IMG/VR virus record: IMGVR_UViG_3300030116_003627
Span: 4,240 to 68,239 of that record
From: a virus
Direction: 5' to 3' (one strand)
Length of the DNA: 64,000 nt
Shown here in pieces: positions 1 through 46,432 of this stretch. The position numbers and the translations under genes are program-made. The notes under the pieces are model-generated. The model ran no database searches, was not told the DNA's origin, and saw only the letters and a list, made by a program, of their open reading frames with translations. Numbering within the stretch: position 1 is the stretch's first letter; each line of letters begins with the position of its first letter.

Positions 1-238
1 AAAATCTATTTGTTGGACTTAAATCAGCATCATCAACATCTGTTAGAGCTCTAAGAGTGGTAGTAATACCATCAATCGGTGCAAATCTAAATTCACTAGC
101 AGAGTCATTATATACTAGATATTTATTAGTCGCCCCAATACCACTATCATTTACATCATTAAGTTGTCTGACTCCAATTGAACTTACACCAGTTGGTATG
201 CCAGAAGTTACCTTTTTGACATAAACTGTCTTGGCCAT
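1..238 (-). CDS. Tail-fibre-like virion protein, 5' part (runs off the window)
   Basis: ATG at 238 overlaps the stop of the upstream ORF (TAATG). Open frame MAKTVYVKKVTSGIPTGVSS...LNDVNDSG...YLVYNDSASEF...LRALTDVD has L-x-D-V fibre-type repeats. Confidence 0.6.
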   Translation of the reverse strand, partial: MAKTVYVKKVTSGIPTGVSSIGVRQLNDVNDSGIGATNKYLVYNDSASEFRFAPIDGITTTLRALTDVDDADLSPTNRF

Positions 239-897
239 TAGAAGGAACCCCCGTCAATCAAGAATGCATCATCTGCCAAAGCATCTGCAATTGCTGCTGA
301 GTCAACAGCGGCAGTTCCTGTAATTACGCCAGCGCTATCAATTGTGATATTACTACCTGCTGAGTATACAGTTAAAATATAATCTGAATCTGCGATTGCC
401 AAAACTTCGCCAGAGTCAATTCCAGCAGCTGTGCCAAAAATATACCTTTGACTTGCACTGTCATATTTTAAAATTTGATTGTGAGTTGCAGTTCCATCTA
501 CATCTGTGAGATCAGCCAACTGAGTGGGAACTTTTTTGGTGCTTGCCTTAAATGCTTTCGCACCTTGAGTGACAGACGGAGTAATCTCTAGAATGCCCTC
601 TACAATACGTTCTGTAGTGTCTGTAGTGGTTGTAATCTCTACATCATAGAAATACCTACCAGCATCAATTGTATTGGTAAAGGCGGCACCTAAGTTGAGT
701 TTAATGATACCATCTGTTGCTGGTGTACCAATAGAGTCGGTAAATTCATAAACAATATTAGAGTTATATTGTTTTCTAAATTTTGCAGCAACAGATATTC
801 CTGTCAGATCACGGGGATTTCTGTTAGCATCAACCACGTCAATCTGAAAAGTAGTGTCTGTTCCCTGTTCGGCTGTTAAAATAGAATATTCAGCCAT
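238..897 (-). CDS. Virion structural protein (BppU-like N-terminal domain plus fibre-type repeat)
   Basis: EQGTD...DLTG...KFRK...AGRYFYDVEI...RIVEGILEITPSVT is typical of T4-like marine phage structural proteins; LADLTDVD repeat; C-terminal IDGGSF. Confidence 0.7.
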   Translation of the reverse strand: MAEYSILTAEQGTDTTFQIDVVDANRNPRDLTGISVAAKFRKQYNSNIVYEFTDSIGTPATDGIIKLNLGAAFTNTIDAGRYFYDVEITTTTDTTERIVEGILEITPSVTQGAKAFKASTKKVPTQLADLTDVDGTATHNQILKYDSASQRYIFGTAAGIDSGEVLAIADSDYILTVYSAGSNITIDSAGVITGTAAVDSAAIADALADDAFLIDGGSF

Positions 898-907
898 TTA
901 CTGTTCC

Positions 908-1615
908 TTAGTTATGTATAGTATGATGACAAATAATTGGATTATTCCCATGACCTAAATCTTTACGAAAAGTATGTACTGCATTCCATCTTGTATCATC
1001 TTCAAAAAAGTCATACTTTAAATATTTATATTTATCACTCTCCTTATTTAGCAGCCACCATAAAGCAAATTGGTCAAAACCTTGTAAAGTTTTTGGATAT
1101 TGGTTTTCAGTTCCTGGCCACCATTCATGATTAGATTGTTTCACCCAAAGTTCATACCAATCCATCATAAATTTTTTTGCAGATGATTTGTACAAACATA
1201 AACCGCCATGAACAGCAAAAGTCACTTCACCAAAATCTACCCCTTTAAAAGCATATTCTCTATCTTTAGTAATTCTTGTCCAAAGCATATCATTATCTTT
1301 TATCTGATCAAAGACAGTTGTAAACTCAGAATTTACAACTTCCATATCAGCGTCAAGGTATAATGTAGTATCATAGGGCGAATTTGACATACACCACATT
1401 TTAGTTCTGATATTAACCGTTGGATTTACATGCGCAGGAATATCAGTTACAACATTATCAAAAATTTTAGATTTAGAATTTAAAAATTCTTTTTCTGTAT
1501 ATAATGTAATGCTAAAATTGGGGGCATAGTCTTTAATTGTCTCAGCTAAGTAACAAGCAGAATTGTAGTATTTTACAAAATTGGTTGCTACAATAATAAT
1601 GCCATTATTCATCAC
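908..1615 (-). CDS. GT-A fold glycosyltransferase-like protein
   Basis: TK...SPYDTTLYLDAD (DxD motif), HGGL, DQFAL and terminal IICHH, a GT8-like layout. Confidence 0.7.
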   Translation of the reverse strand: MMNNGIIIVATNFVKYYNSACYLAETIKDYAPNFSITLYTEKEFLNSKSKIFDNVVTDIPAHVNPTVNIRTKMWCMSNSPYDTTLYLDADMEVVNSEFTTVFDQIKDNDMLWTRITKDREYAFKGVDFGEVTFAVHGGLCLYKSSAKKFMMDWYELWVKQSNHEWWPGTENQYPKTLQGFDQFALWWLLNKESDKYKYLKYDFFEDDTRWNAVHTFRKDLGHGNNPIICHHTIHN

Positions 1616-2234
1616 TCACCAACATTTCAATTGTATCTTCCCAAACTTCTTTTTCATCCATAAAATTAAATGCCATACTATATCGCAAACAATCATTTGA
1701 AGATGCATGGTATACTAATTTTTCTGGTTCATCATAAGCACCAAAATAAAACTGTTTGGCATTCCATCCTTTTTTATCTGGAATAATAATCACTTCTTTT
1801 TTATCATTATCCCAATATCTAAAATCACCCTCACCTGTTTCGGACCAAGTGAACATTATTCCATATCCACTTGCATTTGCATTATTATGCCAGTCACAAT
1901 ATGATTTAGGTGGATAAAATACATCTAAACATATTCTTTGGCAAAACATATACTCAGTTAAAGAACATTTGTGTTTATAGATTTCATCATCAATCACATC
2001 CTTACCATATTTAGAATTATAATAACGAGGCTGCCGAGAAGGATATCCTTTGTGATTGTCTCGCTGAAGCATAATATGTTTTAAATATTCTTCAGAAAGC
2101 CTACGATTTTTTTCATCAAAACATTCATGGTCTTCAACTAGCACATTATCATAATTTATATTTAATAGTCTAGATTCAATATGATTTAACTTTGATAATA
2201 CAAATTTGTCTTTTATCTCAAAGGTCTTCACCAC
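1605..2234 (-). CDS. Hypothetical protein, probable double-stranded beta-helix (cupin/2OG-oxygenase-like) fold
   Basis: YPP...WHNNANA...FTWS..G.G.FRY...YH...RYS pattern. Confidence 0.5.
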   Translation of the reverse strand: MVKTFEIKDKFVLSKLNHIESRLLNINYDNVLVEDHECFDEKNRRLSEEYLKHIMLQRDNHKGYPSRQPRYYNSKYGKDVIDDEIYKHKCSLTEYMFCQRICLDVFYPPKSYCDWHNNANASGYGIMFTWSETGEGDFRYWDNDKKEVIIIPDKKGWNAKQFYFGAYDEPEKLVYHASSNDCLRYSMAFNFMDEKEVWEDTIEMLVSDE

Positions 2235-2697
2235 TTTTGTTTTCCATTTCTTTCATCATCAGCATAACAGCAAGAGCAGTTGCCTCTACATCAGACTTAG
2301 CTCTTCTAATAGAGGATTTTGCTTCTCTGTCTTCTGATTCAAAAATAGCAGGAATATTGAAAATATCCAATTTTGTTTTAAACAGCTGTTCAAGTCTGTC
2401 CAACTCTCTACCCTGCTCATCTTCTTTTTTGAGGCGTTCATGTTTTTCTTTTTCTTCTTTATTAAAAGTTTCTGTAAACGCATCAATTTCTTCTGGTGAG
2501 TAAATTTCAGTGATGGTATTAAAAAGAATATTTTCTTTGGTTTCTTCCGGGTCTTCCCACTTTTTTACTGTTAGGTTTTGTTTTCTTTCAATCTTACCCA
2601 CTTTTGTGTGTTCTTCAACTTCAATAATTGATTTTTCAATGTTGAGCCAAATTGGTTTCACATATTTTTCTTTCAAAAGGTCATTCTGTGTTAACAT
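2218..2697 (-). CDS. Hypothetical protein (charged, coiled-coil)
   Basis: ORF coupled to its neighbours; E/K-rich. Confidence 0.6.
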   Translation of the reverse strand: MLTQNDLLKEKYVKPIWLNIEKSIIEVEEHTKVGKIERKQNLTVKKWEDPEETKENILFNTITEIYSPEEIDAFTETFNKEEKEKHERLKKEDEQGRELDRLEQLFKTKLDIFNIPAIFESEDREAKSSIRRAKSDVEATALAVMLMMKEMENKSGEDL

Positions 2698-2715
2698 TCT
2701 AAATAAAATCCTTCA

Positions 2716-3945
2716 TTAAATTTTAACATGTAAGTAGTATGCATTAATCTCAAAAGATTGATTGCTGAGTGTTTGAGTAAAGTTGGCAGTGAAATTTACC
2801 AATTGTCTAAAGACGCCTCGTTGACGTTGGTTTTGGCGTTGGTTTGGATACACATTGATCAGCTGGCCTTGTCTTCTTTGACTCCGCAACGCAGCTCGGT
2901 TTGTAAAGTTTCCTGTATAGGCGCCACCTGTAGATTCACCCCCATTACCACCAATAGTTTGAGTAAGTCCACCATTGTCTACAATTGCTTTTCTAAGGTC
3001 TTGGTATTTACCAAGATTTCTATACCCAGCTGGTGGTGTAGCACTTGTAGTAATTTGGAAATGTCCGGGTCTGTTTTGACCTTGATTGTCCATAAGTCTA
3101 TTTAAAAGGCCACCTGCAAAAAACTCTTGCATTTCTAGGTTTGTAGAAGTTTCATCATTACCAGCCATTACACCTACACCAAGGAAAATAGCACCAATGT
3201 TTCTGCGTTTCAAAAGTCTTAGTCCACCATCTGGTCTTTTACTTTTAATAAGAGTGTCTGTGGCAGAACCAGCGGTAATGCCAGTTTTCTGATAAATTCT
3301 AACTCTTTCATGGTCATCTAAAGACCCCGAAGCGTTATCAAATTCTTGATCAAGATTAAGAACTAGTCTCCACTCATCACTATCTAAATATTCTGCTTGA
3401 ACGTCAGCAAAAGTACTCAATACAGTATGATCAGAAGGGGAACTAGTGTGTTTATACGACGCTGCCATTCTATAAACACCCGGCAGATCGTGCTGGTAAA
3501 TCAGACTAAGAATGGCGTCTTGAACAGCTGTGTAAGCTGGATCAGAACCCCCAGAGTCACCAATCTCTTGAAGTCCCCCTAAAGTTCTATCATATCTTAA
3601 AGGGTATACTAAAGCATCACCTGAAGGTGGTGATTTTTGATTGACATTTTGTGTTGTTACCAGCCCCAAATGATAAGTGTCTGTAGAAATAGCATAACTA
3701 GAAGTCGTTGATGCACCATCTGTATTATCTACATTCCAGTAAGTATCTTGAATGGTCCCAACAAATCCGTCAGCGCCGGTGCCGCCTTTTAACTCCCACC
3801 AACCTTTTGATGTAGAGTCGTGAATGTCAGCAAGATATTCACCACATTTTGCCGCCAAAACAATAAGGTCATCTGAGTCAGTTTCAATAAATTTAATGAC
3901 ACCAGTACTAGTATCTAATCGTAAAGGAAAACTATCAGTTGTCAT
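2716..3945 (-). CDS. Probable virion structural protein with Arg/Gln-rich C-terminal segment
   Basis: G/T/S/D-rich composition; lies in the tail operon. Confidence 0.6.
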   Translation of the reverse strand: MTTDSFPLRLDTSTGVIKFIETDSDDLIVLAAKCGEYLADIHDSTSKGWWELKGGTGADGFVGTIQDTYWNVDNTDGASTTSSYAISTDTYHLGLVTTQNVNQKSPPSGDALVYPLRYDRTLGGLQEIGDSGGSDPAYTAVQDAILSLIYQHDLPGVYRMAASYKHTSSPSDHTVLSTFADVQAEYLDSDEWRLVLNLDQEFDNASGSLDDHERVRIYQKTGITAGSATDTLIKSKRPDGGLRLLKRRNIGAIFLGVGVMAGNDETSTNLEMQEFFAGGLLNRLMDNQGQNRPGHFQITTSATPPAGYRNLGKYQDLRKAIVDNGGLTQTIGGNGGESTGGAYTGNFTNRAALRSQRRQGQLINVYPNQRQNQRQRGVFRQLVNFTANFTQTLSNQSFEINAYYLHVKI

Positions 3946-4144
3946 TTACCAATTTCTCCAAAAGTCTTTTAATTTCACTTACATCATCCTCTAACTTGTT
4001 CAATCTTTTTTTATCTTCAGATAACGCTTGCTTTTTTCTTTTAGCAGCTTCTAAACCTGTCATGTCTGTATTTAGTACAACCCCAGACACAGTATCTTTT
4101 ACTAGTCCGGGGTGACCATCAACTTTTACATAATCATCAGACAT
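3935..4144 (-). CDS. Small conserved T4-like phage protein downstream of VrlC-like gene
   Basis: VKVDGHPGLVKD..SGVVLNTD followed by a coiled coil. Confidence 0.7.
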   Translation of the reverse strand: MSDDYVKVDGHPGLVKDTVSGVVLNTDMTGLEAAKRKKQALSEDKKRLNKLEDDVSEIKRLLEKLVNDN

Positions 4145-4147
4145 TCA

Positions 4148-7100
4148 TTAAGTTCCTAATGCGATTGCTCTCAAGTCTTTAATCCGTGGTACTCTAGAAG
4201 AGTTTTGTGCACGGAACACAATCTTCAATTGGAAAGTTGTGAATGGTGTAAGTGTACCACCCAATCCACCAATTGTGTAAACATGTTCACGGAATATATT
4301 AGGATTATCAGTAGTTGCCATTTCAGTATCAATTGTTGCTTTAGTGTAGTTAACGTCATCCATGTCTACATCAGCACCAGGCTCTGTGGTTCTGAAGTAA
4401 AGATCAATGAAAGACCCTGTAGGAACGTTAGCACCAATTAATACTTTCAATCCGACAGCTGGTTCAGCAAGAGAGATTGGGTTTGTAACGTGCTTTGCAG
4501 GAGATGTTCCATCTGGATCAGTCTCTGCAACATATGTGATAGGAACGTTTGTTGTGTCATTCACACCTTCAGCACCATCAGAGTCAACAGGGTTGTCAAC
4601 AATATTGTTAACTGTTGTCAAGGATGCTGTCTGAAGATCAATCACTGGCGAAACATATGTGTCTCTGGTAGACAGACTACCAGTAATCTCTACAGACTTT
4701 CTAGGAGTGGAAGCACCACCAAGTGTAGCCTCATCACCTTCAACTCTTTCAGATGCAATAATTCTTGGAGTATCAAAAACTATTGTTGTATTTGGAATAA
4801 TATCAATATCTTCAAAAGTTCCATATGCAGTGTTGGTTGTGAGATTTGCTTTTGTTAAAGATACAAAGTCAGTGAAACTAGCACTAAAGTTTGCAGTAGT
4901 TGGTTCTAAATTAAACACATCTAGATTTGGTGTTACCTCATCCATGATTGCCTGTTGTTCAGAAACAACTCTCCGACCACCAACAAATGCGTTTTTGGTA
5001 GTAGCAGAGTCTGCCTTAAACTGATACCCGAAAGCATCTACTTTAGTAATTGTTCTTTCACCAAGCAAGCTGGCACCTGTCAAATCACCATATGTCCTGC
5101 TAGAGTCAAGTCCAGTTAATTCAACTTTATCGTTGATTGTGAACCCGTGGTTTGGCATGAATACAGTAACATCACTGTCACCAGCTGTTAACTCAATAGG
5201 AGCTCGTGGCAATCTTGCTGTAGGTACAGCATCATTATCAAATAATGCAGACCCACTAGTTTCAAACTCTGCACGGCGCAACCTAAACATCATATCTCTG
5301 CGCTGATCAGGTGTCCATGTAATAGCATTCTGAGACATAAAGAAGGAACCAAGAGTTGGTTGCTTTCTTACACGTCTAGTATTAGACCCTACAAGGAATT
5401 CTTCAATCTCTGCAACATAAACATTATATCCTTGAGTATTGGCAAGAAGAACAAATGCATGTTCTGTATTACCCGGAATATAAACAGGAGCATCAAATTC
5501 AAACTTAGTAGGTCTTGATCTAATCAAGGCCATACCACCTTCGCCAGCAGCAACTGCTTCAGACAATGGAGTAACATTTGAAATTTCACTGCCCTGTTTG
5601 ACTACAACGCCGCCTGTGACAATCTCATCCTGAGATGGTACACCACTTCTGACAGGACGCAGTTCAAGACGAACAGGAACGTCACTATCAATACTAGCAA
5701 AGTATACATCAATAGAAGTGATAAATGCACCAGCGGTATTTGAAACTTGGAAGGATTGTGCAATAGGATCACGCCGTCTTGGTATTTGAGATACTGTAGT
5801 TCTACTGGATGTAGAAGTTGTAACAACATCTTGGAAGACAACTCTTACACCTTCTGCTTCATATCCAGCAGCTGCAAAAGATAATGCGTTGTTTTCATTA
5901 GCGGATTGAATATCCGTAAGTTTTACAATCTTTCTACCAGCATCAAATCTCAAAGTATCATTGTTTGGCAGGAAGAACGAACCTTCAATTGTACCATTGG
6001 CATCAGTTCTCAGTGTACCCGCACCTTGTGGATGAGAGTCAACATCAGCAAATCTTCCAGCGATGTAAGAAGCCAGTCCATTCCCGTCACCGAATCTTTG
6101 GAATGTTTCTTCTCTAGCATAACCAGTAATATTAGTATCATCAAAGAACAGGAAGTGCTGTCTATCAGGAGCAAGTTCTGTTCCTCTAAAGAATACTTTT
6201 CTGTGTCTGATAAATGGTAACAGAGTGATACTAATAACTCTGCGTCCTACAAGAGTTCTAAGTGTAGTTGTAGTAGTTGTAGTTCTTCTACCACGCCGAG
6301 TACTGGTGTTGCGAGAAGTTGTTCGGCTAATTACCTGATCAGGAACATCAATAACATCACCAACAGAAATGTTACCAAAACTCTCTAAGCTATTTGGATT
6401 ATTAGGGTTATTTGTGTTGATACGATTTGGATCAACTGCAACTCTGATAGGTCTTCTTAACAGCCTTGCTCTATGTCTTCTGCGCCGTGGGTGTCTTGTT
6501 CTGTTTCTATCACGACGAGGTAAACCAATTCTTGGTCTATCTTCTAATACATCTTCTCGCCAAGCGTCAACATTAGGTGACAGAATTAACGTGCCGTTGT
6601 AAAGAATAACATCAAATGGGTTAATGTTTTCAATACCTGTTGCCACATTTTGATTGATTTCAACAGTTTCACTATAACTCAGATATACATTATCGCCTTT
6701 TCTGACCGTGTTGGTAGAACCATCAGAATCATAGAGAAGTCTAACATTTTTTGCACCGACACTAGGCATGATAGAATTTTCTCTGTCGTTATGACTAGCC
6801 CGGTAATCATTGGAGAAAATGTCAGAGAAAGTTAAGTCTTTGAAGTTGTCAGCAAAGAAACCATTTTTAAATCTATTGTTACCATTAGAATCTAAAACTT
6901 CAAGGGCCGAAGTTTCAAGTTCCAACATACTAAGTGTAACCGCTTCTTCAAGATTATCAATTCTCTGTTCAATGTCACCAATGTCACGCATTGTGTATCG
7001 TCTATTATCAATTACACTAATAGACAAATCATCTTCGTTATCAGTGTATGGATTTAAAGCAATATCATACAACTTCATTGTGTTGTCTGGTACTACAGGA

Positions 7101-9436
7101 GATTGTGGATTTAATTGTGGTCTGCCCTCAATATATACAACTGGATTATCAGGGTCTTCTGTTGCAACCAAGATATCTTTTCTTGACTTGTAATATTTAA
7201 TGTCAGTAGTGATTACATCAGTATTTCTAGGCAGTGCATGAATAATAGCACCACCACCGTCAAATCCAGTAGACACACTATCTTTAACACTTCTGAAGTC
7301 CAGAACATCTCTTAGTTCAACATCAAAACCATTTGTCAGTCTGTGAGATGGAATGTCTTCATAGTCTACCGCACCAATATAGGAGTTACGGGAGAAGAAG
7401 TCACCTGTTGCACCATGTTCAAAGTGATTATAAACTGTCCTAATAGTCCCGCCAGTAGGTAATGATTGTCCACCCTTAAGGATTACCCGGCCTCTCTGAT
7501 AGAAGTTATCTCTTTGACCGTTATCAGTAAATACTCTAGCAGAAATGTCAACACTATCAGCATCAAGAATATGCTTGAATTGGTGAATGTCAACATCAGG
7601 AAGTGTTACAAATCTTAGACCAGCACCATCACTTTCAATTGCACCAGTATGATCACTGTCAAGCGAAAGTGTTTTGGTTCTATGCTTTGCATCTGAACCT
7701 CTAGAAACATAACCAATAATTTCAATTGTAGTGCTGTTGACACTAGTATCAATCGTAACAGAGTTGGTTCCAGAACCCGTAATACTGTTAGGTGTAATAA
7801 TAGCACCTGTATCTGTTCTAGCTACAATCCAGAGACCAGTATCTACAAAAGTCTCTGTTCCTGTTACGGTTAAAGTTACGTTACCTGTTCCGTCAGTTGT
7901 ATCTTGGAATCTTCTCTGAACTGTCAGATTAATATCTAAAAGACCGCTTGTAGCTGTGCCTACATCTGATGGTCTTGTTCTAGGAAGGTCAAAGAATACA
8001 TTGTTATTTCCAGCATCTTTAAGTACAGCAATACTATTTTCTAAGATTAAATCTGCACCATTGTCAGAATCAACAGCAATAGCTCTTGTGTTTCTGAAGT
8101 TTTGGCCAGCATTCATATTCACATCAAATAAGTAGTATCTGTAATTAGACCCCTCAGTTTCAACAGAACGAACTTTTGCTGTACCAATTTTACTACCTGT
8201 CAGATTGATATTGGACATGGTATCTGTAAACAGACCATAAGTTTCAAAATCATTAACACCAACATCAGGCAAACCTTTATTACTGGTAACACGAACATAG
8301 TTACCAAAGTTTGCCGGAACATTTACATTTTCTTGTACATCTGTAGTGGTCTGTGACCTATTCACAGTAATATTAGTAGGTGCTGTTTTACTTACTCTAT
8401 AACCATTTGTGTATGCAATACCGGGAGAAATTTCCAAAAGAAGTGTTGAAGCATCATCTGGATTTTCTTTGAATTTAATATCAAAGTTATCTACAACATA
8501 ACTACCAGACTCTTCTTTTGTTCTCAGAGCTAACTCATCGCCAATAATGTTGTATGTATTTTGATCTATCTCTCTTTGAATTACACCGTTTACAATTTTG
8601 TTTGTAATCACAAAGTTAGTACTAGAGTCAACACCTGTCTCATCTGTATAACTGAGAGTCAATCTAATTCTATATCTGTCAGCACCCGGCGCAGTTAAGT
8701 TTGGTGTGCCAAGTTGGTTATCATAAAGTTCATTAGTATCTGTAACTGTAACAATATCTTCTGTGACAATAAATCCAATATCTACTGTAGGAGTATTGCT
8801 GTACTTACTAATAATTTTAGTTTGTGGTAAAGCTTGTACAAAGTGATCACGAACAAAGTAACCACCTAAATTAACTGCAATTTGATAACCTTGCCCTACA
8901 ACATTTGCTGCACTAGTGTCACTATGACCAAGAGCAGACAGTGTTGCAGTAGTTGCTACGTTTACAGAAGATGATCCACCTTGCCCACTCTCATTACCGT
9001 TGGTCAAAGTCTGACCAGCACTAAATTTGATTGGTGTTGTGCCACTAGTCGCTGTACCGCCACTGATGTATTTTACATATACAGTTGGTGGATCATTGTT
9101 TTCTTGTGCTACAAACTCAAGAACTTCTGCCTTTACTCCATTAGGAGCAGTCAAAATATCTTTTCTGTACAGAACAAGACTAGCAGAAGATTGCAGTTTT
9201 ACATATTCATATTCATTATCAATATCTAAACCACCGGGATTTACAACAGACCCCTCTTTAAAGATATTTCTACCAAATCGTGCAAGTTCCTTTTGGATGA
9301 TAGTTTGCATCTGCGTAAGTTCTCTGGCTTGCAGTGCTTTACCAGAGTTAAACAGAATGCGGTGATAGTTGTCACTATCCCTGTAATCATCCTTATAGGT
9401 AGTAGAAAATGTATTTTCGTTAAACGTATTTGGCAT
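4148..9436 (-). CDS. Large virion structural protein, VrlC/DUF4815-like
   Basis: YKDDY..YHRILF..GKALQARELTQMQTIIQ, APGADRY, RRYTMRDIG, RFKNGFFADNF, DPIAQSF, C-terminal PRIKDLRAIAL. Confidence 0.9.
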   Translation of the reverse strand: MPNTFNENTFSTTYKDDYRDSDNYHRILFNSGKALQARELTQMQTIIQKELARFGRNIFKEGSVVNPGGLDIDNEYEYVKLQSSASLVLYRKDILTAPNGVKAEVLEFVAQENNDPPTVYVKYISGGTATSGTTPIKFSAGQTLTNGNESGQGGSSSVNVATTATLSALGHSDTSAANVVGQGYQIAVNLGGYFVRDHFVQALPQTKIISKYSNTPTVDIGFIVTEDIVTVTDTNELYDNQLGTPNLTAPGADRYRIRLTLSYTDETGVDSSTNFVITNKIVNGVIQREIDQNTYNIIGDELALRTKEESGSYVVDNFDIKFKENPDDASTLLLEISPGIAYTNGYRVSKTAPTNITVNRSQTTTDVQENVNVPANFGNYVRVTSNKGLPDVGVNDFETYGLFTDTMSNINLTGSKIGTAKVRSVETEGSNYRYYLFDVNMNAGQNFRNTRAIAVDSDNGADLILENSIAVLKDAGNNNVFFDLPRTRPSDVGTATSGLLDINLTVQRRFQDTTDGTGNVTLTVTGTETFVDTGLWIVARTDTGAIITPNSITGSGTNSVTIDTSVNSTTIEIIGYVSRGSDAKHRTKTLSLDSDHTGAIESDGAGLRFVTLPDVDIHQFKHILDADSVDISARVFTDNGQRDNFYQRGRVILKGGQSLPTGGTIRTVYNHFEHGATGDFFSRNSYIGAVDYEDIPSHRLTNGFDVELRDVLDFRSVKDSVSTGFDGGGAIIHALPRNTDVITTDIKYYKSRKDILVATEDPDNPVVYIEGRPQLNPQSPVVPDNTMKLYDIALNPYTDNEDDLSISVIDNRRYTMRDIGDIEQRIDNLEEAVTLSMLELETSALEVLDSNGNNRFKNGFFADNFKDLTFSDIFSNDYRASHNDRENSIMPSVGAKNVRLLYDSDGSTNTVRKGDNVYLSYSETVEINQNVATGIENINPFDVILYNGTLILSPNVDAWREDVLEDRPRIGLPRRDRNRTRHPRRRRHRARLLRRPIRVAVDPNRINTNNPNNPNSLESFGNISVGDVIDVPDQVISRTTSRNTSTRRGRRTTTTTTTLRTLVGRRVISITLLPFIRHRKVFFRGTELAPDRQHFLFFDDTNITGYAREETFQRFGDGNGLASYIAGRFADVDSHPQGAGTLRTDANGTIEGSFFLPNNDTLRFDAGRKIVKLTDIQSANENNALSFAAAGYEAEGVRVVFQDVVTTSTSSRTTVSQIPRRRDPIAQSFQVSNTAGAFITSIDVYFASIDSDVPVRLELRPVRSGVPSQDEIVTGGVVVKQGSEISNVTPLSEAVAAGEGGMALIRSRPTKFEFDAPVYIPGNTEHAFVLLANTQGYNVYVAEIEEFLVGSNTRRVRKQPTLGSFFMSQNAITWTPDQRRDMMFRLRRAEFETSGSALFDNDAVPTARLPRAPIELTAGDSDVTVFMPNHGFTINDKVELTGLDSSRTYGDLTGASLLGERTITKVDAFGYQFKADSATTKNAFVGGRRVVSEQQAIMDEVTPNLDVFNLEPTTANFSASFTDFVSLTKANLTTNTAYGTFEDIDIIPNTTIVFDTPRIIASERVEGDEATLGGASTPRKSVEITGSLSTRDTYVSPVIDLQTASLTTVNNIVDNPVDSDGAEGVNDTTNVPITYVAETDPDGTSPAKHVTNPISLAEPAVGLKVLIGANVPTGSFIDLYFRTTEPGADVDMDDVNYTKATIDTEMATTDNPNIFREHVYTIGGLGGTLTPFTTFQLKIVFRAQNSSRVPRIKDLRAIALGT

Positions 9437-9451
9437 CTCTTATTTTACCTT

Positions 9452-10831
9452 TTAAAACTGCACAATCACTTTTACGTCTTCAGTACCAAGTGTGGTTCTG
9501 GTAACTGGCGCTCTGTTTTCAATATATAGTACCTGACCACTGAAAGGATCAACTTCACCATCAGAGTCAGAAACAAAACCGGCCTCGTTAGAAGCATTGC
9601 TAGAATCTTGAATGCTTGTATCAGAAGCAGTAAACTGAATAAATCCAGTATTTTCATTTTGATGGTAAGAAATAATTCTATCATTAGAAGAACTTACTTT
9701 ATCTACAAATGCTTTTGCACCTGTAGTTTGACCAACAATAGTTTGGTCAGCTGCAATGCCACTAGTAGAATCATCAAGTGTAAGAATTCTAAGAGCAGAA
9801 CCTGTAGTAGCAGTAAAGTCAGAATCAACAGCAGACCGACTATTAGGAACTTTTGGATCACGAATCAGACCAACTTGTCTAAAGTCTTGATTAACTAAGA
9901 AATCACCTGCGCCTGCCTCACCAACAATCTTAGCATTGAACATTACTGCTCTTGCTCTAAGATCATCTCTAGGGTCTGCACCCATACCATTTTTGGCAAT
10001 GATAGGTCTAATGATAGCACCTGATCCACTATCCACACCCGTCACGACAACGTTAGCATAATCGTATCCAGCACCAAATGGAATACCGCCAGCAGAATCG
10101 TCTACTTCTGCCTTTACAATAACTCCACCACTAACAGTAGCAATTGCTCTTGCAGAACTACCATTACCTTTTACTGCAAGGGTTGCTCCACTATTGTAAC
10201 TTGTACCACCGTCAATAATTTTATATCCGATAATTTCACCGGGGACAGCTGCATTTTGTACGTCTTGCTGTGACTGCTGAATATTTGTAAGAGTACCACT
10301 ATCAATAAGTTGTACAGGAATAAAGTTTGCAGAACCAAACTTACTCAGACTAATAGCAGAGTGTGTATAGAGATATTTCCAAATATATCCATCTGCTGTT
10401 GCTTTTGCTGATGTTGTAGTCAGTGTGGTATCTGGATCAATAGAAGATGGTACAGGCGTTCCGGTAGCTGATTTACCCTGTTGTAAGCAAATATACACTC
10501 TGTTAGAACTGGTTTGTACATAGTACTGTCCATTGGTATTAGTACCAGTTGCAGTCTTTTCATCACTGTAAGCCTGATAAATTGTACCAGAAGACCAGTT
10601 GTATCTTGGGATGACATAAGACACATCAGTAGTTTTGATCACTGACTGAAGGTTAGTTCTAAACTGCCTTTCTTCCCGCTCAGTGTTAACAGGGGCAGGA
10701 GCTGCATCAGTTGCATTCCACTGATCAGACTTTGCAATACCAATATAATAATTTGTCCCAGAATCATTCAAATCAGTGATTAATTCTTGGACAAGATTCT
10801 TTTTAAAATCATCAGTTACGATAGCTACCAT
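9452..10831 (-). CDS. gp8: Baseplate wedge subunit gp8
   Basis: VIPRYNWSSG, VYICL, DGYIWKYLY, DFRQVGLIRDP, SGQVLYIENR, EDVKVIVQF. Confidence 0.9.
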   Translation of the reverse strand: MVAIVTDDFKKNLVQELITDLNDSGTNYYIGIAKSDQWNATDAAPAPVNTEREERQFRTNLQSVIKTTDVSYVIPRYNWSSGTIYQAYSDEKTATGTNTNGQYYVQTSSNRVYICLQQGKSATGTPVPSSIDPDTTLTTTSAKATADGYIWKYLYTHSAISLSKFGSANFIPVQLIDSGTLTNIQQSQQDVQNAAVPGEIIGYKIIDGGTSYNSGATLAVKGNGSSARAIATVSGGVIVKAEVDDSAGGIPFGAGYDYANVVVTGVDSGSGAIIRPIIAKNGMGADPRDDLRARAVMFNAKIVGEAGAGDFLVNQDFRQVGLIRDPKVPNSRSAVDSDFTATTGSALRILTLDDSTSGIAADQTIVGQTTGAKAFVDKVSSSNDRIISYHQNENTGFIQFTASDTSIQDSSNASNEAGFVSDSDGEVDPFSGQVLYIENRAPVTRTTLGTEDVKVIVQF

Positions 10832-10845
10832 TTGTTTACCTTATC

Positions 10846-11901
10846 TTATGTGATTGCCACATGTCTGTCTGAGTCTCTGTCAAGGTTCCATCTGTCACCG
10901 TCAAAGACCATTTCAAAGAATGCGTTACCTGTTAATACAATATTACCAGTACCAGCGTCTGGATGACCAAGATATGTAGAACCTACCTGAAGTGTTACTT
11001 CGTTAGCACCACTTTTGTTTACAATCTTTTTAATCTCACCAGCATCAAAACCTGTATTAAAGAAGTTATATGCAGTAGTTGTACTTACGTTAATAATATA
11101 CATTGCTTTATCAGAATCAAATGTAGCACCAGATGAATCTAATGTTTGTGTGGAGTATTTAATTCTACCACCAACTTCAATAACACCACTATTCTTTGGT
11201 GCAATCTTAATACCAACATTAGTATCTGTACCATCTGCTCCAATAGTTGGAGATGCAGTAGATGCTTCTGCTGTAACTTTTAAGTAGTTATTTGGAGTGC
11301 CGCTAGTGGTAAGTTGAATGATTTCATTATCCGCAGAGTCACGAATAATTGTATTCATCTTTGGTTGGTTCAGTGTCAAACTATTCAGTGTTGCATTTGT
11401 AGTAATACTATAGTTACCAGTTGTTAATGTATCACTATCAATTACTTTAGAGTAGTTTGTACCATTAGAGTAGAAAGCTTTGTTGCTTTGACCATCATGT
11501 AAAATAACACCCTTATACACAGAAGCAGTTGGAAATGCGCCTGTACTATCATAGTTGTTATTAAACAATGCTCTAGCAGCTGTAGCACCATCTGCTAAGT
11601 CAACTGATTTTCTAGATGATCCTTCAATAACTACAATCTCACCGTCTTTATTGGGGAGATTAACTGTTCTACCAGCTGCATCAGGATTTAAGAACCCAAG
11701 AGTAGTGGTATGGTTAGAGTCATCAGTAAAGATAATACCAGTGCTATCAAAGGTAATGTCATTTCCTAATACAGTGCTATCACCACCTAGTGCAGTGTAA
11801 AGTTCTGTAAAGTTTTCATTAATTTTGGTTGCAGCCGACCGTAAGGTATCACCTGTACCATCATTTGCTGCCGTACCTTTAGAAATATTTTGTCTTGCCA
11901 T
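10846..11901 (-). CDS. Baseplate wedge / tail fibre connector, gp9/gp10-type N-terminus
   Basis: MARQNI..GTAANDGTGDTLRSAATKINENFTELY. Confidence 0.8.
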   Translation of the reverse strand: MARQNISKGTAANDGTGDTLRSAATKINENFTELYTALGGDSTVLGNDITFDSTGIIFTDDSNHTTTLGFLNPDAAGRTVNLPNKDGEIVVIEGSSRKSVDLADGATAARALFNNNYDSTGAFPTASVYKGVILHDGQSNKAFYSNGTNYSKVIDSDTLTTGNYSITTNATLNSLTLNQPKMNTIIRDSADNEIIQLTTSGTPNNYLKVTAEASTASPTIGADGTDTNVGIKIAPKNSGVIEVGGRIKYSTQTLDSSGATFDSDKAMYIINVSTTTAYNFFNTGFDAGEIKKIVNKSGANEVTLQVGSTYLGHPDAGTGNIVLTGNAFFEMVFDGDRWNLDRDSDRHVAIT

Positions 11902-11929
11902 GTTACCTACTCATTGAGTGAATTAGTAA

Positions 11930-11937
11930 TATTTATA
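11930..11937 (-). promoter_or_regulatory. T4-type late promoter (TATAAATA)
   Basis: Exact TATAAATA in the intergenic gap upstream of the gp9-like gene. Confidence 0.8.
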
Positions 11938-11945
11938 TCAAATTA

Positions 11946-12914
11946 TTAAGGTGTATCTGCACCAACGCTATCATAGAATGGGAAAATATCTTCATCCATT
12001 GTCTGAATAGTGTCGGACATAAGAATTCTTGTAAGACCAGAACCAGCAGAATCTGCCGAGTCATCAAAGGTGGGTGAGTTAGTATTTAGAATATCTTTGA
12101 TAGACTTGTATTGTGCATACGAACTATCAAGACCACCTATAGAGTCATTGTAGAAGTGAATGTCTCTACCTACATAATATCTAGCGGTTTCAGAACTATC
12201 AATACCTGTAAGACTGATAGTTGGAGAAAGAGAAAAGTCTGCAATCTCTTGTACAATTACTGTGTTAATATCACTGTCAACTGCCGACAATGGCATAGTT
12301 GCTGCTAATTCTGAATTGTTTGCCAAAAGTTCAAACAATGTTTCACTGAAAATAGCAAAACCAGCCGGATGAATATATTGTTTATAGAAAGCAAACCACT
12401 GGTCAGCAGGAACATTTGTTCTCAAAAGAATAGAGTATACTTGATAGAAGTAAGAGTCCTGAATAAATCTAAGAGATTCTGCTCCTACTTCTGACTGACC
12501 AACAATAAACATAGAGTTTCTAGGAAGAACCTGCTCAACATCAGTACCAAAGAAAAATCTAAAGAAACCTTCTACAGATACTTTTGAACCTTTACCATTC
12601 AAAAATCCCGGTATCTGTAAGAAAGCGTATCTTGGCGATGGAAATGTATCACCAGAAATGCCGGGAACACGTTCTTCAAACATTGTTGCAAGAAACTCAT
12701 CTGGCGTAGAGCCCGGGTCTTTAATTGTAAATAAATTTTTCAGATTGTGTGTTGGTTGACCATCACTATCCAAATAGTCGTAATATGCTTCTAAAAAATC
12801 AATTAATTTTGGATACTGTTCCTTGAAATGTTCAGGCACAACTGTATTGATTTGAGACTCATACATATTTGCATTAAGTCTATTAAAGTCAGTTGTGGTT
12901 CTTACATTACTCAT
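11946..12914 (-). CDS. Baseplate wedge initiator, short gp7-like
   Basis: PEHFKEQYPKLIDFLEAYYDYL, KGS, QDSYFYQVYS, HPAGF; position directly after gp6. Confidence 0.75.
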   Translation of the reverse strand: MSNVRTTTDFNRLNANMYESQINTVVPEHFKEQYPKLIDFLEAYYDYLDSDGQPTHNLKNLFTIKDPGSTPDEFLATMFEERVPGISGDTFPSPRYAFLQIPGFLNGKGSKVSVEGFFRFFFGTDVEQVLPRNSMFIVGQSEVGAESLRFIQDSYFYQVYSILLRTNVPADQWFAFYKQYIHPAGFAIFSETLFELLANNSELAATMPLSAVDSDINTVIVQEIADFSLSPTISLTGIDSSETARYYVGRDIHFYNDSIGGLDSSYAQYKSIKDILNTNSPTFDDSADSAGSGLTRILMSDTIQTMDEDIFPFYDSVGADTP

Positions 12915-12915
12915 T

Positions 12916-14799
12916 TTAGTTTGTCACACCCGTAACAGAAGTAGCAGCATCAATATCTGGAACACCAGTAACCAAATTATCGCCTAATTCAATCAGTGTA
13001 TTTCTCAAAGGCTTAAAGTTTGTATCATCAGCAGGGATAGCTTTGATTTGTAAGTAAGTATTGCCAGAAACAATAGTTTGTGGTAAGAACCCGACAAGAT
13101 TAACTTTTCCTGTAGTTGGTTCATAATTACCAACGTTACCAACAATTACGTTTGCATCACCATCAATAATTTGTAATGTTGTAGAATGTAAAGGTGCATT
13201 TCTGATAGTACACTGTAAGTTATTAAAAGTAAACTTTTCACTAGTAATTGTAGGAGTGTCCATCTGTGGTGCTTGTATACTGTTCAGGAAGTTAATAGTA
13301 TAATCGGAACGAACAAAGTTTCCTGTTGTAGCATTAACAACCGGAGTAAATCTTGCTTTCATATTAATAGCAAGTTTAGTTCCAAGAATAGATGGATCAG
13401 CACCATCAATAGCAGCTGCAACCTTTGACTTATGGATTACATCATTAAACTTTCCTGCATTGGTAGCAAAATATGATTGTACAAAACTTCTAATTTTATT
13501 TTCAATTGCTTGTCTAGTTAAGTTAGTCAAACCAGCATTATATCTAAATGTTGTACTTACGTCAAGGTAAATAAATGTTGGGTCAACAAATTCAGTTTCA
13601 ACACCAATAACAGATAGTGGATTTGTAAGATTTTGAATAATAATTGCTTCTGTAGCAACTTTTTGTGCAGCTGTTAATGTATCTTCATAGACTAGAGATA
13701 CTAAGACTTTACCATATTTGGCAGGAACATTGTCTTCTCCACCCCATGCGTTGATAGACTTAATACCCGGAACACCGTTAGCAATAATACCGAGATAGTC
13801 ACCGGCTGCAACAAATCTGTTCTGTGCAAGATAAGACAATGGTGCATTAATACGAATAGATTCTGTACCTTCTTTGTCAGCACCAAAAGAAGACTTTGCA
13901 AAAGTTACTGCGTTAAGTGTGTAAGATACATTGTTCACACTTAGTGTAGATGATGGTGTAAAGACAGAGGCACCATTTGCATCAAGTCCATTTGTTCTCA
14001 GGTATGTAATACGAATAACCTGACCGTTAGTTGGGTTTACACCTGTAACACCACCAACACCAAAATTGAATTCCCAATAACCATTATATGTTTCCAAAGG
14101 CAGATATAACGCAGTAGTAGAAGACACAGTAGCAATAATGTTACCACTTGTCGTAGCGTTTGCACTAAAATAAGTGGTGAAGTTATCAGAGTTAACATCA
14201 TCATATACTTGTACACCTACTGTACCCAAGTCCAAGTCTTGATCAGGTACAACATAAACCTGTCTATCACCAGTGATTTCTGCAATAAATGTTTTTACAG
14301 TCAGTTCACCTTCAAACACAGTAATGTATGGATTACCAAGTTGATCTACAAATGTGTAGATACCTGTACCTGTTGTATCATATCCTGTATACTCAAGAAG
14401 TGTTCTAAATGTATAACTTACGCCATCAACAGAAGCAGTGAATGCTGTACCAGCTGGAAGTGTTACAGTTGCTGGTCTGGATGCAGCATTAGATAAGTTA
14501 ACAGAAACAGTAAGTTGTGCACGGGATGCAGTCTTTGATCTTGGAATATATCCAAAAGAAAGTGACTGGTTTACCAAAGACGTTCTGAGCTGTGCCGTAG
14601 GCAAGAATGCTTCATTCAATGCAAAGTTTGCCAGCAATCCATTTAAGTGTGTGTTATATGCTAACACATCCATAATGTTAGATAGGGCAGAACCTTCAAA
14701 ATCATAATCTGAAAACTCTGATTTTGATTTAAAATAATTTGTCAGAGATGTTTTGATATCATCAAAATTCAAATCTGATGGTGTAATAGTGGTTGCCAT
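12916..14799 (-). CDS. gp6: Baseplate wedge subunit gp6
   Basis: LNFDDIK..L..Y, FSDYDFEGSALS..MDVLAYNTH, AQNRFV..DY, WGGEDN.P..YGKV. Confidence 0.95.
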   Translation of the reverse strand: MATTITPSDLNFDDIKTSLTNYFKSKSEFSDYDFEGSALSNIMDVLAYNTHLNGLLANFALNEAFLPTAQLRTSLVNQSLSFGYIPRSKTASRAQLTVSVNLSNAASRPATVTLPAGTAFTASVDGVSYTFRTLLEYTGYDTTGTGIYTFVDQLGNPYITVFEGELTVKTFIAEITGDRQVYVVPDQDLDLGTVGVQVYDDVNSDNFTTYFSANATTSGNIIATVSSTTALYLPLETYNGYWEFNFGVGGVTGVNPTNGQVIRITYLRTNGLDANGASVFTPSSTLSVNNVSYTLNAVTFAKSSFGADKEGTESIRINAPLSYLAQNRFVAAGDYLGIIANGVPGIKSINAWGGEDNVPAKYGKVLVSLVYEDTLTAAQKVATEAIIIQNLTNPLSVIGVETEFVDPTFIYLDVSTTFRYNAGLTNLTRQAIENKIRSFVQSYFATNAGKFNDVIHKSKVAAAIDGADPSILGTKLAINMKARFTPVVNATTGNFVRSDYTINFLNSIQAPQMDTPTITSEKFTFNNLQCTIRNAPLHSTTLQIIDGDANVIVGNVGNYEPTTGKVNLVGFLPQTIVSGNTYLQIKAIPADDTNFKPLRNTLIELGDNLVTGVPDIDAATSVTGVTN

Positions 14800-14801
14800 T
14801 C

Positions 14802-15284
14802 TTATCTAATCCTTGATATATTAGTCTCTAGTACTACAGTCTCTTCTGTGTTGACAATCTGAAACTCTACTATGACAGATAGGTAATTTCTATCCAAAAA
14901 GAGTTGCTGTTTATCAAGTGCATCATTATCAGCATCATTAACAATAACATTCAACACTTTTGCTCTTGGTTCATAAGTATCAATAGCATCAATAACAGCT
15001 TGTGCAATAAAAAATTCATTTTCTTGAGCAGTGAAGTTATCAAATAATTTTGATCTTAAATCTGCCCCTAACAATGGTTGGAAAGGTCTTTCGCCATAAT
15101 TAGTCTGCAAGATAGTCTTTACAGATTGCTTGACAGCAGCTGCATCAGTCTTTTTAAATACATCACCAGTAGTTCTAGCAGTGAAAGTTAAATCCAAATC
15201 ACTGTAATCTCTAGACTTAGTAGAGATAATAGACCTTAACTGTTGATTACCATCTTCAATTGAAAATGCTTTTGATACTGCCAT
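14802..15284 (-). CDS. gp25: Baseplate wedge subunit gp25
   Basis: YSDLDLTF, AVKQSVK.IL.T..GERPFQP.LG, YEPRA. Confidence 0.95.
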   Translation of the reverse strand: MAVSKAFSIEDGNQQLRSIISTKSRDYSDLDLTFTARTTGDVFKKTDAAAVKQSVKTILQTNYGERPFQPLLGADLRSKLFDNFTAQENEFFIAQAVIDAIDTYEPRAKVLNVIVNDADNDALDKQQLFLDRNYLSVIVEFQIVNTEETVVLETNISRIR

Positions 15285-38255: not shown

Positions 38256-38878
38256 TTGTGAACCTTAATATCTAAATTATCTGGTTTTTTAAATGGAACG
38301 TTATCATGTTTATGATGGATAACAAATTGCGTACCACTAAACTCTTTAAAAATCCCTTGGAAGATTGGGCGCCATACACGGGTCAATCTTTCGGTATTAG
38401 TGGCTCCCCGATCAGATGGAAGATAGAAATCGGTTTTGGACCGAATATCAAAATCCATAATAGAATCAAAACCATAGATGTGAATTTCGTCCGCCTTTAA
38501 TTTGTTTGCTGCATAGTGAGTTGCAAAGTGACCACAATTGAAATCAGTATAGTTCTTTGCATATTTAGGCAAAACCTCATAGAATTCTTTTACTTGTGGG
38601 GAGTATTTCATATAGAAGCTTTGTCGCATCTCCATCCACTTCTTAGGTCTTACTCCAAGAACCCACGGATAAGGATTTATAACACTACCTTCTGTGATTG
38701 CTTTCATCATCTTGAAATCAACCATACAAGAAACATACACATTGGGTACTTCAAATGGGGGCAGATTGCATGTGATCTTCAAACCCTTTGCAGGTTTGTA
38801 ATGAACAGCATTATCACCATTACCAATAATATGAACTACTCTAGCCATTATTCTTTTTAACTCCTGATAACCAATCAA
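38252..38878 (-). CDS. Glycosyltransferase-like / Rossmann-type protein
   Basis: VHIIGNG.., CN, N.GH.A, I.IYGFD, a layout resembling sialyltransferase/DUF115-like folds. Confidence 0.5.
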   Translation of the reverse strand: MIGYQELKRIMARVVHIIGNGDNAVHYKPAKGLKITCNLPPFEVPNVYVSCMVDFKMMKAITEGSVINPYPWVLGVRPKKWMEMRQSFYMKYSPQVKEFYEVLPKYAKNYTDFNCGHFATHYAANKLKADEIHIYGFDSIMDFDIRSKTDFYLPSDRGATNTERLTRVWRPIFQGIFKEFSGTQFVIHHKHDNVPFKKPDNLDIKVHK

Positions 38879-38901
38879 CTAAAGAGTATCTAGTCACTTT
38901 A

Positions 38902-46244: not shown

Positions 46245-46431
46245 TGATTACCTTTTGGCACACTTCAAGTGCATCATCAAATCCTTTACGAAAACGATTT
46301 GCGGTATATCCTTTTTTAACAAACCATTCCATACTTTGAATTGTACCATGATATTTATCTTCTGGTAGAACGAAACCGGAGACGAGTCGTTCATACTCGC
46401 TCCGACAATTTAGATAGTCAATAAATTTCAT
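46219..46431 (-). CDS. Hypothetical protein
   Basis: Short coupled ORF. Confidence 0.55.
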   Translation of the reverse strand: MKFIDYLNCRSEYERLVSGFVLPEDKYHGTIQSMEWFVKKGYTANRFRKGFDDALEVCQKVINEYRQSGN

Positions 46432-46432
46432 A

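Follow-up and report, generated by a model that had tools for sequence, protein, structure and literature searches.

Mycobacteriophages are said to glycosylate their virions with phage-encoded glycosyltransferases (GTs), the capsid and tail tube being modified, and we know of no dipeptide sequon described for this modification. Structural proteins in other systems are acted upon by a hydroxylase paired with a GT, such as collagen Lys hydroxylase with GT25, Mimivirus L230 and the Skp1 prolyl hydroxylase with its N-acetylglucosamine (GlcNAc) transferase, and the repeated metal-binding His-x-His motifs of T4 fibres are a precedent for repeated structural or ion-binding motifs in fibre proteins. 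In Bacteroidota the O-glycosylation sequon is D-(S/T)-(L/I/V/T/A/S/M) (PMC8550257, PMC12871550); the system acts on non-cytoplasmic proteins after the glycan has been flipped to the periplasm, is abolished by Gly at the third place and slightly prefers Ser over Thr (PMC12871550). A literature search, as far as the texts of its results were available, turned up nothing published about an Asp-Ser signature of phage fibres, nor about virion glycosylation in cyanophages or pelagiphages. The present analysis concerns the dipeptide Asp-Ser (DS) in the peripheral virion proteins encoded by a 64,000-nucleotide stretch of viral DNA (the window), namely bases 4240-68239 of the 68,239-base IMG/VR contig IMGVR_UViG_3300030116_003627 (G000), which is estimated to be 39% complete.

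The window holds a T4-like myovirus baseplate and fibre module, with every gene on the minus strand, in the order gp53-like, hub pieces, gp25, gp6, gp7-like, gp9/10-like, gp8, VrlC/DUF4815 and fibre genes (Table 1). Homology to T4-type wedge and periphery proteins in a T4-like order was found for gp8 (phrog_438, E 1e-77), gp6 (phrog_219, E 1e-124), the gp10-like protein (PF07880 and residues 2-41 of T4 gp10) and the gp7-like protein (PF23786). A preliminary description had counted DS in these proteins by hand and had proposed that it marks sites of O-glycosylation by phage-encoded enzymes. Every count was reproduced exactly. The protein then called gp9-like keeps its count under a different identity, as its N-terminus aligns best with T4 gp10.

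Expected numbers of DS were calculated from composition and p values from 2000 shuffles of each protein's own sequence. The excess had a p of 0.0005 in both the gp9/10-like and the gp7-like protein, where 7 of the 9 sites of the latter lie after residue 210, in the last third. In the 219-aa (amino acid) fibre-associated protein p was 0.0025, with five of the six sites in the C-terminal 75 aa, and in gp8 it was 0.02. The VrlC-like protein (p 0.15) and the 409-aa protein (p 0.08) were not significant alone; a homologue of the 409-aa protein in locus L005 has 8 DS against 2.8 expected. As had been noted, gp6 and gp25 have none. The three DS of the gp53-like protein, at residues 283, 351 and 413, all lie outside the conserved residues 1-99 and represent no enrichment.

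When the seven peripheral open reading frames (ORFs) of the window were pooled (3601 aa), 53 DS were found against 23.5-24.6 expected (z 6.2-6.6), and 53 was never reached in 2000 shuffles, either of whole proteins or within blocks of 10, 20 or 40 residues. The same pattern was seen in the fibre ORFs lying upstream on the contig, with 11 DS against 3.4 expected in a 401-aa fragment, 15 against 6.4 in an 811-aa protein (p811) and 2 against 0.5 in a 111-aa protein. Adding these, and taking the ORF at the window edge in its full 150-aa form, gave an extended pool of 10 peripheral ORFs (4995 aa) with 85 DS against 35.5 expected (z 8.8), which places DS first among all 400 dipeptides; the runner-up reaches z 4.4, resting on one single count. 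Other pairs in the extended pool were not enriched in this way: SD was found 46 times against 35.1 expected, DT 31 against 41.0, ES 11 against 15.7, NS 29 against 30.0 and DG 36 against 34.1, and DS exceeded SD with a binomial p of 0.0008. Since DT, SD, NS and ES are not enriched, the DS signal is Ser-specific and orientation-specific. The enrichment is real, 2-4 fold over chance and stronger than first noted.

An artefact of composition, of D/S-rich regions or of a DNA-level motif such as GANTC deserves next to no credence as the source of the excess. SD is mildly raised (46 against 35), a slight co-localisation of D and S, and GAY-TCN necessarily contains GANTC. However, the observed count was reached in 0 of 2000 shuffles even inside 10-residue blocks, so local D/S-rich patches do not explain the excess and regional composition was excluded as its cause. 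GANTC was rejected as well: the Ser after Asp is encoded by AGY, which cannot form GANTC, at 36 of 85 sites and by TCN at 49, the AGY share being close to that of other Ser (116 of 345), and the other two reading frames show no excess of GANTC. With both Ser codon families in use and GANTC flat in the other frames, the signal lies in the protein and not in the DNA. Composition does not account for the excess, which is limited to peripheral virion proteins, as was originally held.

The sites have a recognisable context, which had first been described as mostly hydrophobic-D-S-[A/D/G/S/T]. The residue before D is hydrophobic (VLIMFYWA) at 49 of the 85 sites (background 0.38) and the third residue is A, D, G, S or T at 63 (background 0.43). 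Counts at the third place were D 24, A 15, S 10, N 8 and G 8, so that D, A, S, N or G together make up 65 of 85. The fourth residue is G at 20 sites and DSDG occurs six times. In the fibres of relatives DS heads short repeated units. A 1406-aa fibre of the relative G001 has 40 DS against 10.5 expected, spaced 9-26 residues apart, with units starting ...DSAYVQ.R. or PNVLDS.NV., and Asn stands in place of Asp in two repeat copies. No family for the DS repeats was found in Pfam or PHROGs, tblastn of the DS-repeat region gave only generic fibre modules in cultured phages, and in PDB sequence searches the gp10-like protein and the DS-rich G001 fibre matched nothing beyond the N-terminus of T4 gp10 and one generic segment of a fibre.

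These contexts bear on two other explanations. The presence of Asp at the third place in 24 of 85 sites and of Gly at the fourth in 20, with DSDG six times, could mean that DS supplies ligands to divalent cations (seawater Ca or Mg) that stiffen fibres or inter-domain joints in the manner of a DxDxDG loop. The proteins are extracellular and marine, and repeated ion sites are known in T4 fibres. This must be judged unlikely, given that DSDG accounts for only 6 of the 85 sites, that Ala is the commonest third residue in the G001 fibre (24 of 40) and that the marine outgroups, Pelagibacter phage Mosig and the cyanophages, are without enrichment.

The second explanation, an analogy drawn in the preliminary description, is that the phage infects a Bacteroidota host and that its virion proteins carry the D-(S/T)-(hydrophobic) O-glycosylation sequon of that phylum. 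This is largely refuted, and we consider it very improbable. Asp precedes Ser at all 85 sites, which is true by definition, and A or T is the third residue at 27 of 40 sites in the G001 fibre. However, DT is found 31 times against 41.0 expected, Thr not being used as an acceptor, and only 30 of 85 third residues are A, I, L, V, M or T (background 0.40) while 40 are D, N or G. Virion assembly is cytoplasmic, whereas the Bacteroidota system works in the periplasm and has non-cytoplasmic targets. Its slight preference for Ser over Thr speaks for the analogy (PMC12871550). The hints about the host do not point to Bacteroidota either. Among cultured relatives whose host is named, the nearest by gp8 is Mosig, a phage of Pelagibacter. 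A gene of the IMPDH/GMP-reductase family in the window has nearest cellular homologues of 50-57% identity, and of the nearest 80 none is from Bacteroidota and 63 are from Pelagibacteraceae or uncultured Alphaproteobacteria, as judged by record titles. This is a weak hint that the host may be a SAR11-like alphaproteobacterium.

The distribution of the signal among relatives was then compared. No near relative of the contig was found among 50,697 deposited phage records and no cultured member of its group is known; the nearest named phages by gp8 are Phage C48C1 (34% identity), Mosig (30%) and then cyanophages. The relatives used were 68 IMG/VR loci retrieved by gp8. Family counts exclude homologues covering <80% of the query, those differing in length by >35% and identical sequences, and the summed counts for the gp7-, gp10- and gp8-like proteins and gp6 also exclude C48C1. 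In loci whose gp8 is at least about 40% identical, the enrichment is kept in the gp7-, gp10- and gp8-like proteins, VrlC and the fibre ORFs, and gp6, gp25 and the hub proteins are at or below the expected number. Summed over families, DS stands at 223 against 91 expected for the gp7-like protein (33 sequences), 134 against 51 for the gp10-like protein (23), 318 against 178 for gp8 (57) and 58 against 107 for gp6 (30). DT across relatives is 0.73-0.94 of expectation, and the capsid, sheath and tube homologues of relatives show no DS enrichment.

Six long contigs of the group (G001, G002, G008, G009, G010 and G011) share the DS outliers. G002, which is 146.6 kb long, has terminal repeats and is 100% complete, has 30 DS against 11.4 expected in its fibre, 8 against 2.5 in the gp7-like protein and 7 against 2.6 in gp8. 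The fibres of the other contigs gave 33 against 10.1 (G008), 27 against 10.3 (G009), 33 against 9.9 (G010) and 66 against 20.6 (G011). C48C1 is without general enrichment (gp7-like 1 against 2.0, gp8 3 against 2.7, VrlC 7 against 10.9 and a 3347-aa fibre 8 against 14.8), and in its single outlier ORF SD (28) is about as high as DS (31). Mosig has no DS outlier among 53 ORFs of 50 kb, and the fibre ORFs in its second 50 kb have 4 DS against 7.8 expected, 3 against 3.4 and 4 against 2.7. Orthologues of p811 in the cyanophages P-SSM2 and S-8S55 have 2 DS against 2.9 and 2 against 3.2. The enrichment is thus a lineage-specific signature of a large uncultured group of marine T4-like myoviruses. In phylogenetic terms, the comparisons of DS-rich with DS-poor phages all reduce to a single contrast.

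Alignment of the relatives revealed a mixture of fixed sites and sites that come and go between columns. Sites 239 and 285 of the gp7-like protein are kept in 28 of 33 relatives. By contrast, only one of the 15 DS sites of p811 (575) is also DS in both cyanophage orthologues. Distinct DS columns number 32 in the gp7-like protein, 27 in the gp10-like protein and 47 in gp8, more than for DT, DA, DG or DN. Where Ser has been lost in relatives Asp is often retained (as DG, DQ, DD, DE, DN, DT or DI), which suggests that Asp is the older, anchoring residue. Thr replaces Ser in 41 of 201 cases at DS columns against 216 of 861 at control Ser columns (20% against 25%). The gp8 columns adjoin insertions and deletions, and the outgroups have NS, ES, DT or GD there. 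D-x has therefore been turned repeatedly into D-S on conserved folds within one lineage, which is how a selected tag would look, as the preliminary description had supposed. In many relatives the gp7-like protein also has a DS motif 2-3 residues from its C-terminus (...SDSAI, ...GDSFY).

The reading we favour, at a probability of roughly 0.45, is that DS is a lineage-specific Asp-initiated turn or cap motif with a structural role. Hydrophobic-Asp-Ser-(Asp/Ala/Ser/Asn/Gly)-(Gly) would act as short structural punctuation in fibre and outer-baseplate proteins, closing one short strand or helix and opening the next. The Asp carboxylate would cap free backbone NH groups (as an Asx-turn or N-cap), the hydrophobic residue before it would anchor the end of the preceding element, and Ser, being small and not beta-branched, would suit the turn and could add a second hydroxyl hydrogen bond or a cation ligand. 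The motif may have spread by duplication and shuffling of fibre repeat units and by repeated replacement of D-x with D-S in surface loops of the gp7-, gp8- and gp10-like proteins. This mechanism is drawn from the textbook preferences of Asx-turns, type-I beta-turns and helix N-caps. It is supported by the context of the sites, which matches the classic type-I turn or N-cap pattern, by the place of DS at the head of fibre repeat units, two copies of which have Asn for Asp (a change that an Asx cap would permit), by the frequent retention of Asp where Ser is lost, and by the position of gp8 columns beside insertions and deletions, as in loops. We also count in its favour that Thr takes the place of Ser at about the control rate and that some sites are fixed (gp7-like 239 and 285, and p811 575 shared with cyanophages). 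The lack, on the 68 kb of the contig, of a writer gene common to the DS-rich genomes and absent from the outgroups favours it too. DS avoidance in the rest of the genome was considered and rejected: DS stands at 41 against 67 (0.61) in the contig's own remaining proteins, at 0.80-0.88 of expectation in the outgroups and, with outlier ORFs set aside, at 0.89-1.10 in G002 and G001. The absence of clear avoidance in non-target proteins is again counted for the structural role.

Several observations fit a structural turn or cap poorly. A generic preference of this kind should not be lineage-specific, and orthologues with the same fold lack the DS excess. The pairs DT, NS and DG, which would serve equally well in a cap or turn, are not enriched. 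The many DS columns, more than those of comparable Asp pairs, indicate repeated gain. Finally, an AlphaFold2 model of the gp7-like protein from a 26-row alignment had a predicted local distance difference test (pLDDT) score of 47.6, and below 45 in the DS-rich third, so that no site is placed by structure.

The lineage specificity, the exactness of the pair and its repeated gain would be explained if DS were an acceptor sequon at which a phage-encoded enzyme modifies Ser on exposed turns of the fibres and outer baseplate, thereby decorating the adsorption apparatus. O-glycosylation would be the leading candidate, and phosphorylation or another Ser-specific change is possible. We regard this as a serious but doubtful alternative. 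It would account for a signal that is exact to the dipeptide, to Ser and to orientation, that is limited to exposed peripheral proteins with gp6, gp25, the hub and other inner parts at or below expectation, that was gained lineage-wide on conserved folds, and whose sites turn over between columns with density kept. These genomes encode several GT-A enzymes and sugar-nucleotide genes, and GT genes lie inside the fibre modules of the window, C48C1 and G002. Proteome-wide D-(S/T)-x enrichment is the known signature of the Bacteroidota system (PMC12871550). The points on the other side are that Thr is unused, that avoidance in non-target proteins is not consistent, and that the enzymes named as writers do not follow the signal, as set out below.

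The first enzyme named in the preliminary description is the 235-aa GT encoded within the fibre module. Its AlphaFold2 model, made with 14 homologues, had a pLDDT of 89.6 and a predicted template modelling (TM) score, pTM, of 0.89. The top 18 Foldseek matches in the PDB were all glycogenin, and the UGGT catalytic domain came next (E 1e-9 to 1e-7, TM 0.54-0.66). D88 and D90, the DxD motif, are present in 15 of 15 sequences and His230 is likewise invariant. No Pfam family matched at E up to 1, hence not PF01501 either, and no PDB sequence at E up to 10. Judged by its predicted fold and invariant residues, the protein is a GT-A glycosyltransferase of glycogenin/GT8 type, in line with its first assignment. 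Its gene overlaps by a few bases that of a 209-aa partner, which had an Atlas feature score of 0.93 to a viral cluster named Asp/Asn-hydroxylase and an AlkB-type model match at TM 0.51; the partner is probably a 2-oxoglutarate (2OG)-Fe(II) oxygenase of Asp/Asn-hydroxylase type, which we offer as a lead only. The two genes also stand side by side in the C48C1 fibre module, where there are two further oxygenase paralogues, and G009 has both as well. They look like a mobile modification cassette of two genes.

The role of DS writer assigned to this GT is not supported, as its presence and DS enrichment dissociate both ways. The complete, DS-rich G002 has no homologue of it, whereas C48C1, without general DS enrichment, carries a homologue of 40% identity within its fibre module. 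DS-rich fibre modules without the cassette were also seen in loci L008, L010, L020 and L033, which are fragment contigs whose cassette genes could lie elsewhere.

The second set of proposed writers lies at 38-47 kb. These are sugar-nucleotide and transferase genes as described, and the part of the claim that made them DS writers is not supported, as they are mostly absent from the DS-rich G001 and G002. Most genes of the variable island listed in Table 1, which also holds genes without assignment, have no homologue in G001, G002, C48C1 or 100 kb of Mosig, and the flanking genes are shared; by its gene content it looks like a hypervariable sugar-gene island. Beside it, p228 is the homologue of a C48C1 coding sequence annotated 'glycosyltransferase'. 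Its neighbour p208 (208 aa) has relatives in 959 clusters (E up to 0.001) and no Pfam family; among the best 120 of the 959 clusters identity is 60-86%, mostly in marine metagenomes, and p208 is among the most conserved genes of this phage group. A role of p208 as a Maf/MptE-like writer was considered and rejected (Pfam E 0.08, a 13% share in the neighbouring Atlas cluster, a homologue in the DS-poor C48C1).

With 100 of the 141 kb of Mosig covered, no gene on the contig of the window is shared with both DS-rich genomes, G001 and G002, and at the same time missing from C48C1 and Mosig. Seen from G002, 21 ORFs are shared with G001 and absent from both outgroups, 10 of the 21 having been scanned in Pfam. 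The fibre module of G002 contains a cassette (L078:722-4041) on the minus strand between plus-strand fibre genes, with a p228-like gene, a radical SAM/SPASM gene, a GT8 and a GT-A-like gene, and elsewhere this genome has two GT25 genes and a gene for a 266-aa GT8-like protein (L075:15730-16530). The 266-aa protein matches Pfam GT8 with E 2.5e-4, below the cut-off. Its gene is present in G001, G002, G004 and G007 and matches 294 IMG/VR stretches, with 57-79% identity over 79 relatives (from the best 80 of the 294, G002's own included), and was found in none of the 50,697 deposited phage records. All four long contigs picked for carrying it were DS-rich (fibres 33 against 10.1, 27 against 10.3, 66 against 20.6 and 33 against 9.9), a point in favour of an acceptor sequon, and the gene co-occurs in 8 of 8 DS-rich contigs where visible, within a single clade. 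Against this, it was not found in the 68-kb contig of the window (39% complete), nor in the fragments G003, G005 and G006 (35-39% complete), and its positional counterpart in the window, the DxD protein p259, shows likeness to it only in the surroundings of the DxD motif (hhalign 88% over 43 columns). The association of the gene with DS sets one clade against the rest, so that descent alone could explain it, and this confounding weighs against the sequon.

The 266-aa GT8-like gene is the best candidate that we have for a lineage-specific writer. That lineage-specific GT-A enzymes place an O-linked sugar on hydrophobic-Asp-Ser turns over the fibres and outer baseplate, with the 266-aa protein as one candidate enzyme and oxygenases as possible partners, is conceivable but should be held with reserve. 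Most bacterial GT8 enzymes have lipopolysaccharide as their substrate, and the Asp/Asn-hydroxylase family includes enzymes that hydroxylate lipid A; that both are classic lipopolysaccharide-modifying families counts against a virion sequon. The same is true of GT25, a lipopolysaccharide-modifying family by its Pfam description. The probability not given to the causes discussed here is left to causes that were not considered.

Table 1. Features of the window discussed in the text, with the DS count of each protein and, in brackets, the number expected from composition
Feature	Coordinates	Strand	DS	Remarks
N-terminal 79 aa of 150-aa fibre-like protein	2..238	-	2 (0.71)	continues past window start to G000:4025; 6 DS in whole 150-aa protein
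219-aa fibre-associated protein	238..897	-	6 (1.51)	N-terminal domain: phrog_1084 / phrog_3304 ('L-shaped tail fiber protein assembly')
235-aa predicted GT-A glycosyltransferase, glycogenin/GT8-like fold	908..1615	-	0	invariant D88-x-D90, His230
209-aa GT partner, probably 2OG-Fe(II) oxygenase of Asp/Asn-hydroxylase type	1605..2234	-	0	
159-aa Lys/Glu-rich protein	2218..2697	-	0	within inserted cassette
409-aa protein	2716..3945	-	5 (2.35)	no Pfam or PHROG family
69-aa virion structural protein	3935..4144	-	0	phrog_473
1762-aa VrlC-like / DUF4815 protein	4148..9436	-	14 (10.2)	
gp8 baseplate wedge subunit	9452..10831	-	8 (3.63)	
gp9/gp10-type N-terminal domain	10846..11901	-	9 (2.40)	C-terminal part of no assigned type
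gp7-like baseplate wedge protein	11946..12914	-	9 (2.68)	
gp6	12916..14799	-	0 (2.51)	internal control
gp25	14802..15284	-	0 (0.94)	internal control
gp53-like wedge subunit with long extension	21663..23306	-	3 (2.85)	gp53 PHROG match residues 1-99
Two B12-binding radical SAM genes	34936..38255			tandem paralogues
Two conserved marine-phage genes, p208 and p228	38252..39588	-		p208 38252-38878, p228 38902-39588; both also in DS-poor C48C1
Variable sugar/modification island	39590..47212	-		next six rows are members
GT8	40434..41117	-		in variable island
Methyltransferase	42134..42775	-		in variable island
Nucleoside diphosphate (NDP)-sugar 4,6-dehydratase/epimerase	42756..43781	-		in variable island
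2OG oxygenase	44705..45310	-		in variable island
Radical SAM/SPASM	45294..46244	-		in variable island
DxD protein p259	46433..47212	-		in variable island
IMPDH/GMP-reductase-family gene	53753..54862			

Some further features of the window were observed. Both the 150-aa and the 219-aa fibre proteins end at the C-terminus in IDGG(T/S)F, which, like the terminal DS motif of the gp7-like protein in relatives, is a conserved C-terminal tag. The VrlC-like protein, otherwise acidic, has an extreme Arg-rich stretch at residues ~965-1075 followed by a run of seven Thr, and the 409-aa protein has a Gln/Arg-rich stretch near its C-terminus. The two B12-binding radical SAM genes (541 and 565 aa, mutual E 3e-188) have no homologue of note in G001, G002, C48C1 or Mosig and are unusual as phage cargo.

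Should the motif be structural, it would be a compact, countable signature of a fibre building block and would mark the receptor-binding and outer-baseplate proteins of very common uncultured ocean phages. As most of these ORFs have no family, the signature helps their annotation. If it is a modification site, the large islands of sugar genes in marine T4-like phages, usually read as host-surface modifiers, would gain a function. Such phages would then follow a sequon rule in coating the proteins by which they recognise their hosts, and this would bear on host range, particle stickiness and grazing. A phage-encoded system that glycosylates proteins at a sequon would be the first of its kind, and its target would be the adsorption apparatus rather than the capsid. 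Under either reading, the predicted sites number about 85 in one phage and 66 in a single fibre of the relative G011.

Compared with the known systems, the DS signature resembles the Bacteroidota sequon in that Asp stands right before a hydroxyl residue, in that the motif is enriched in a set of target proteins and in that, there, the sites lie in soluble, exposed regions. It differs in using Ser only, in a third residue that is mostly D, A, S, N or G, and in being carried by virion proteins assembled in the cytoplasm. Like the mycobacteriophages, these tailed phages have GT genes beside structural genes, with virion proteins as plausible substrates; unlike them, the capsid, sheath and tube homologues of relatives here are not DS-enriched. 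The 235-aa GT shares with glycogenin/GT8 and with UGGT (GT24) a predicted GT-A fold (Foldseek E ~1e-9, TM ~0.6), the DxD and a C-terminal His, and differs from GT8 in having no Pfam GT8 match even at E 1. The known pairs of hydroxylase and GT have a parallel in the adjoining oxygenase and GT genes inside the fibre module, a pairing kept in C48C1, but the pair here does not track the DS signal. The motif is like an Asx-turn or N-cap in having Asp first, a small polar residue second, Asp, Asn or Ser third, Gly fourth and a hydrophobic residue before. The preferences of such turns and caps are universal and weak, whereas the excess described here, of 2-4 fold, concerns one exact dipeptide, one class of proteins and one lineage.

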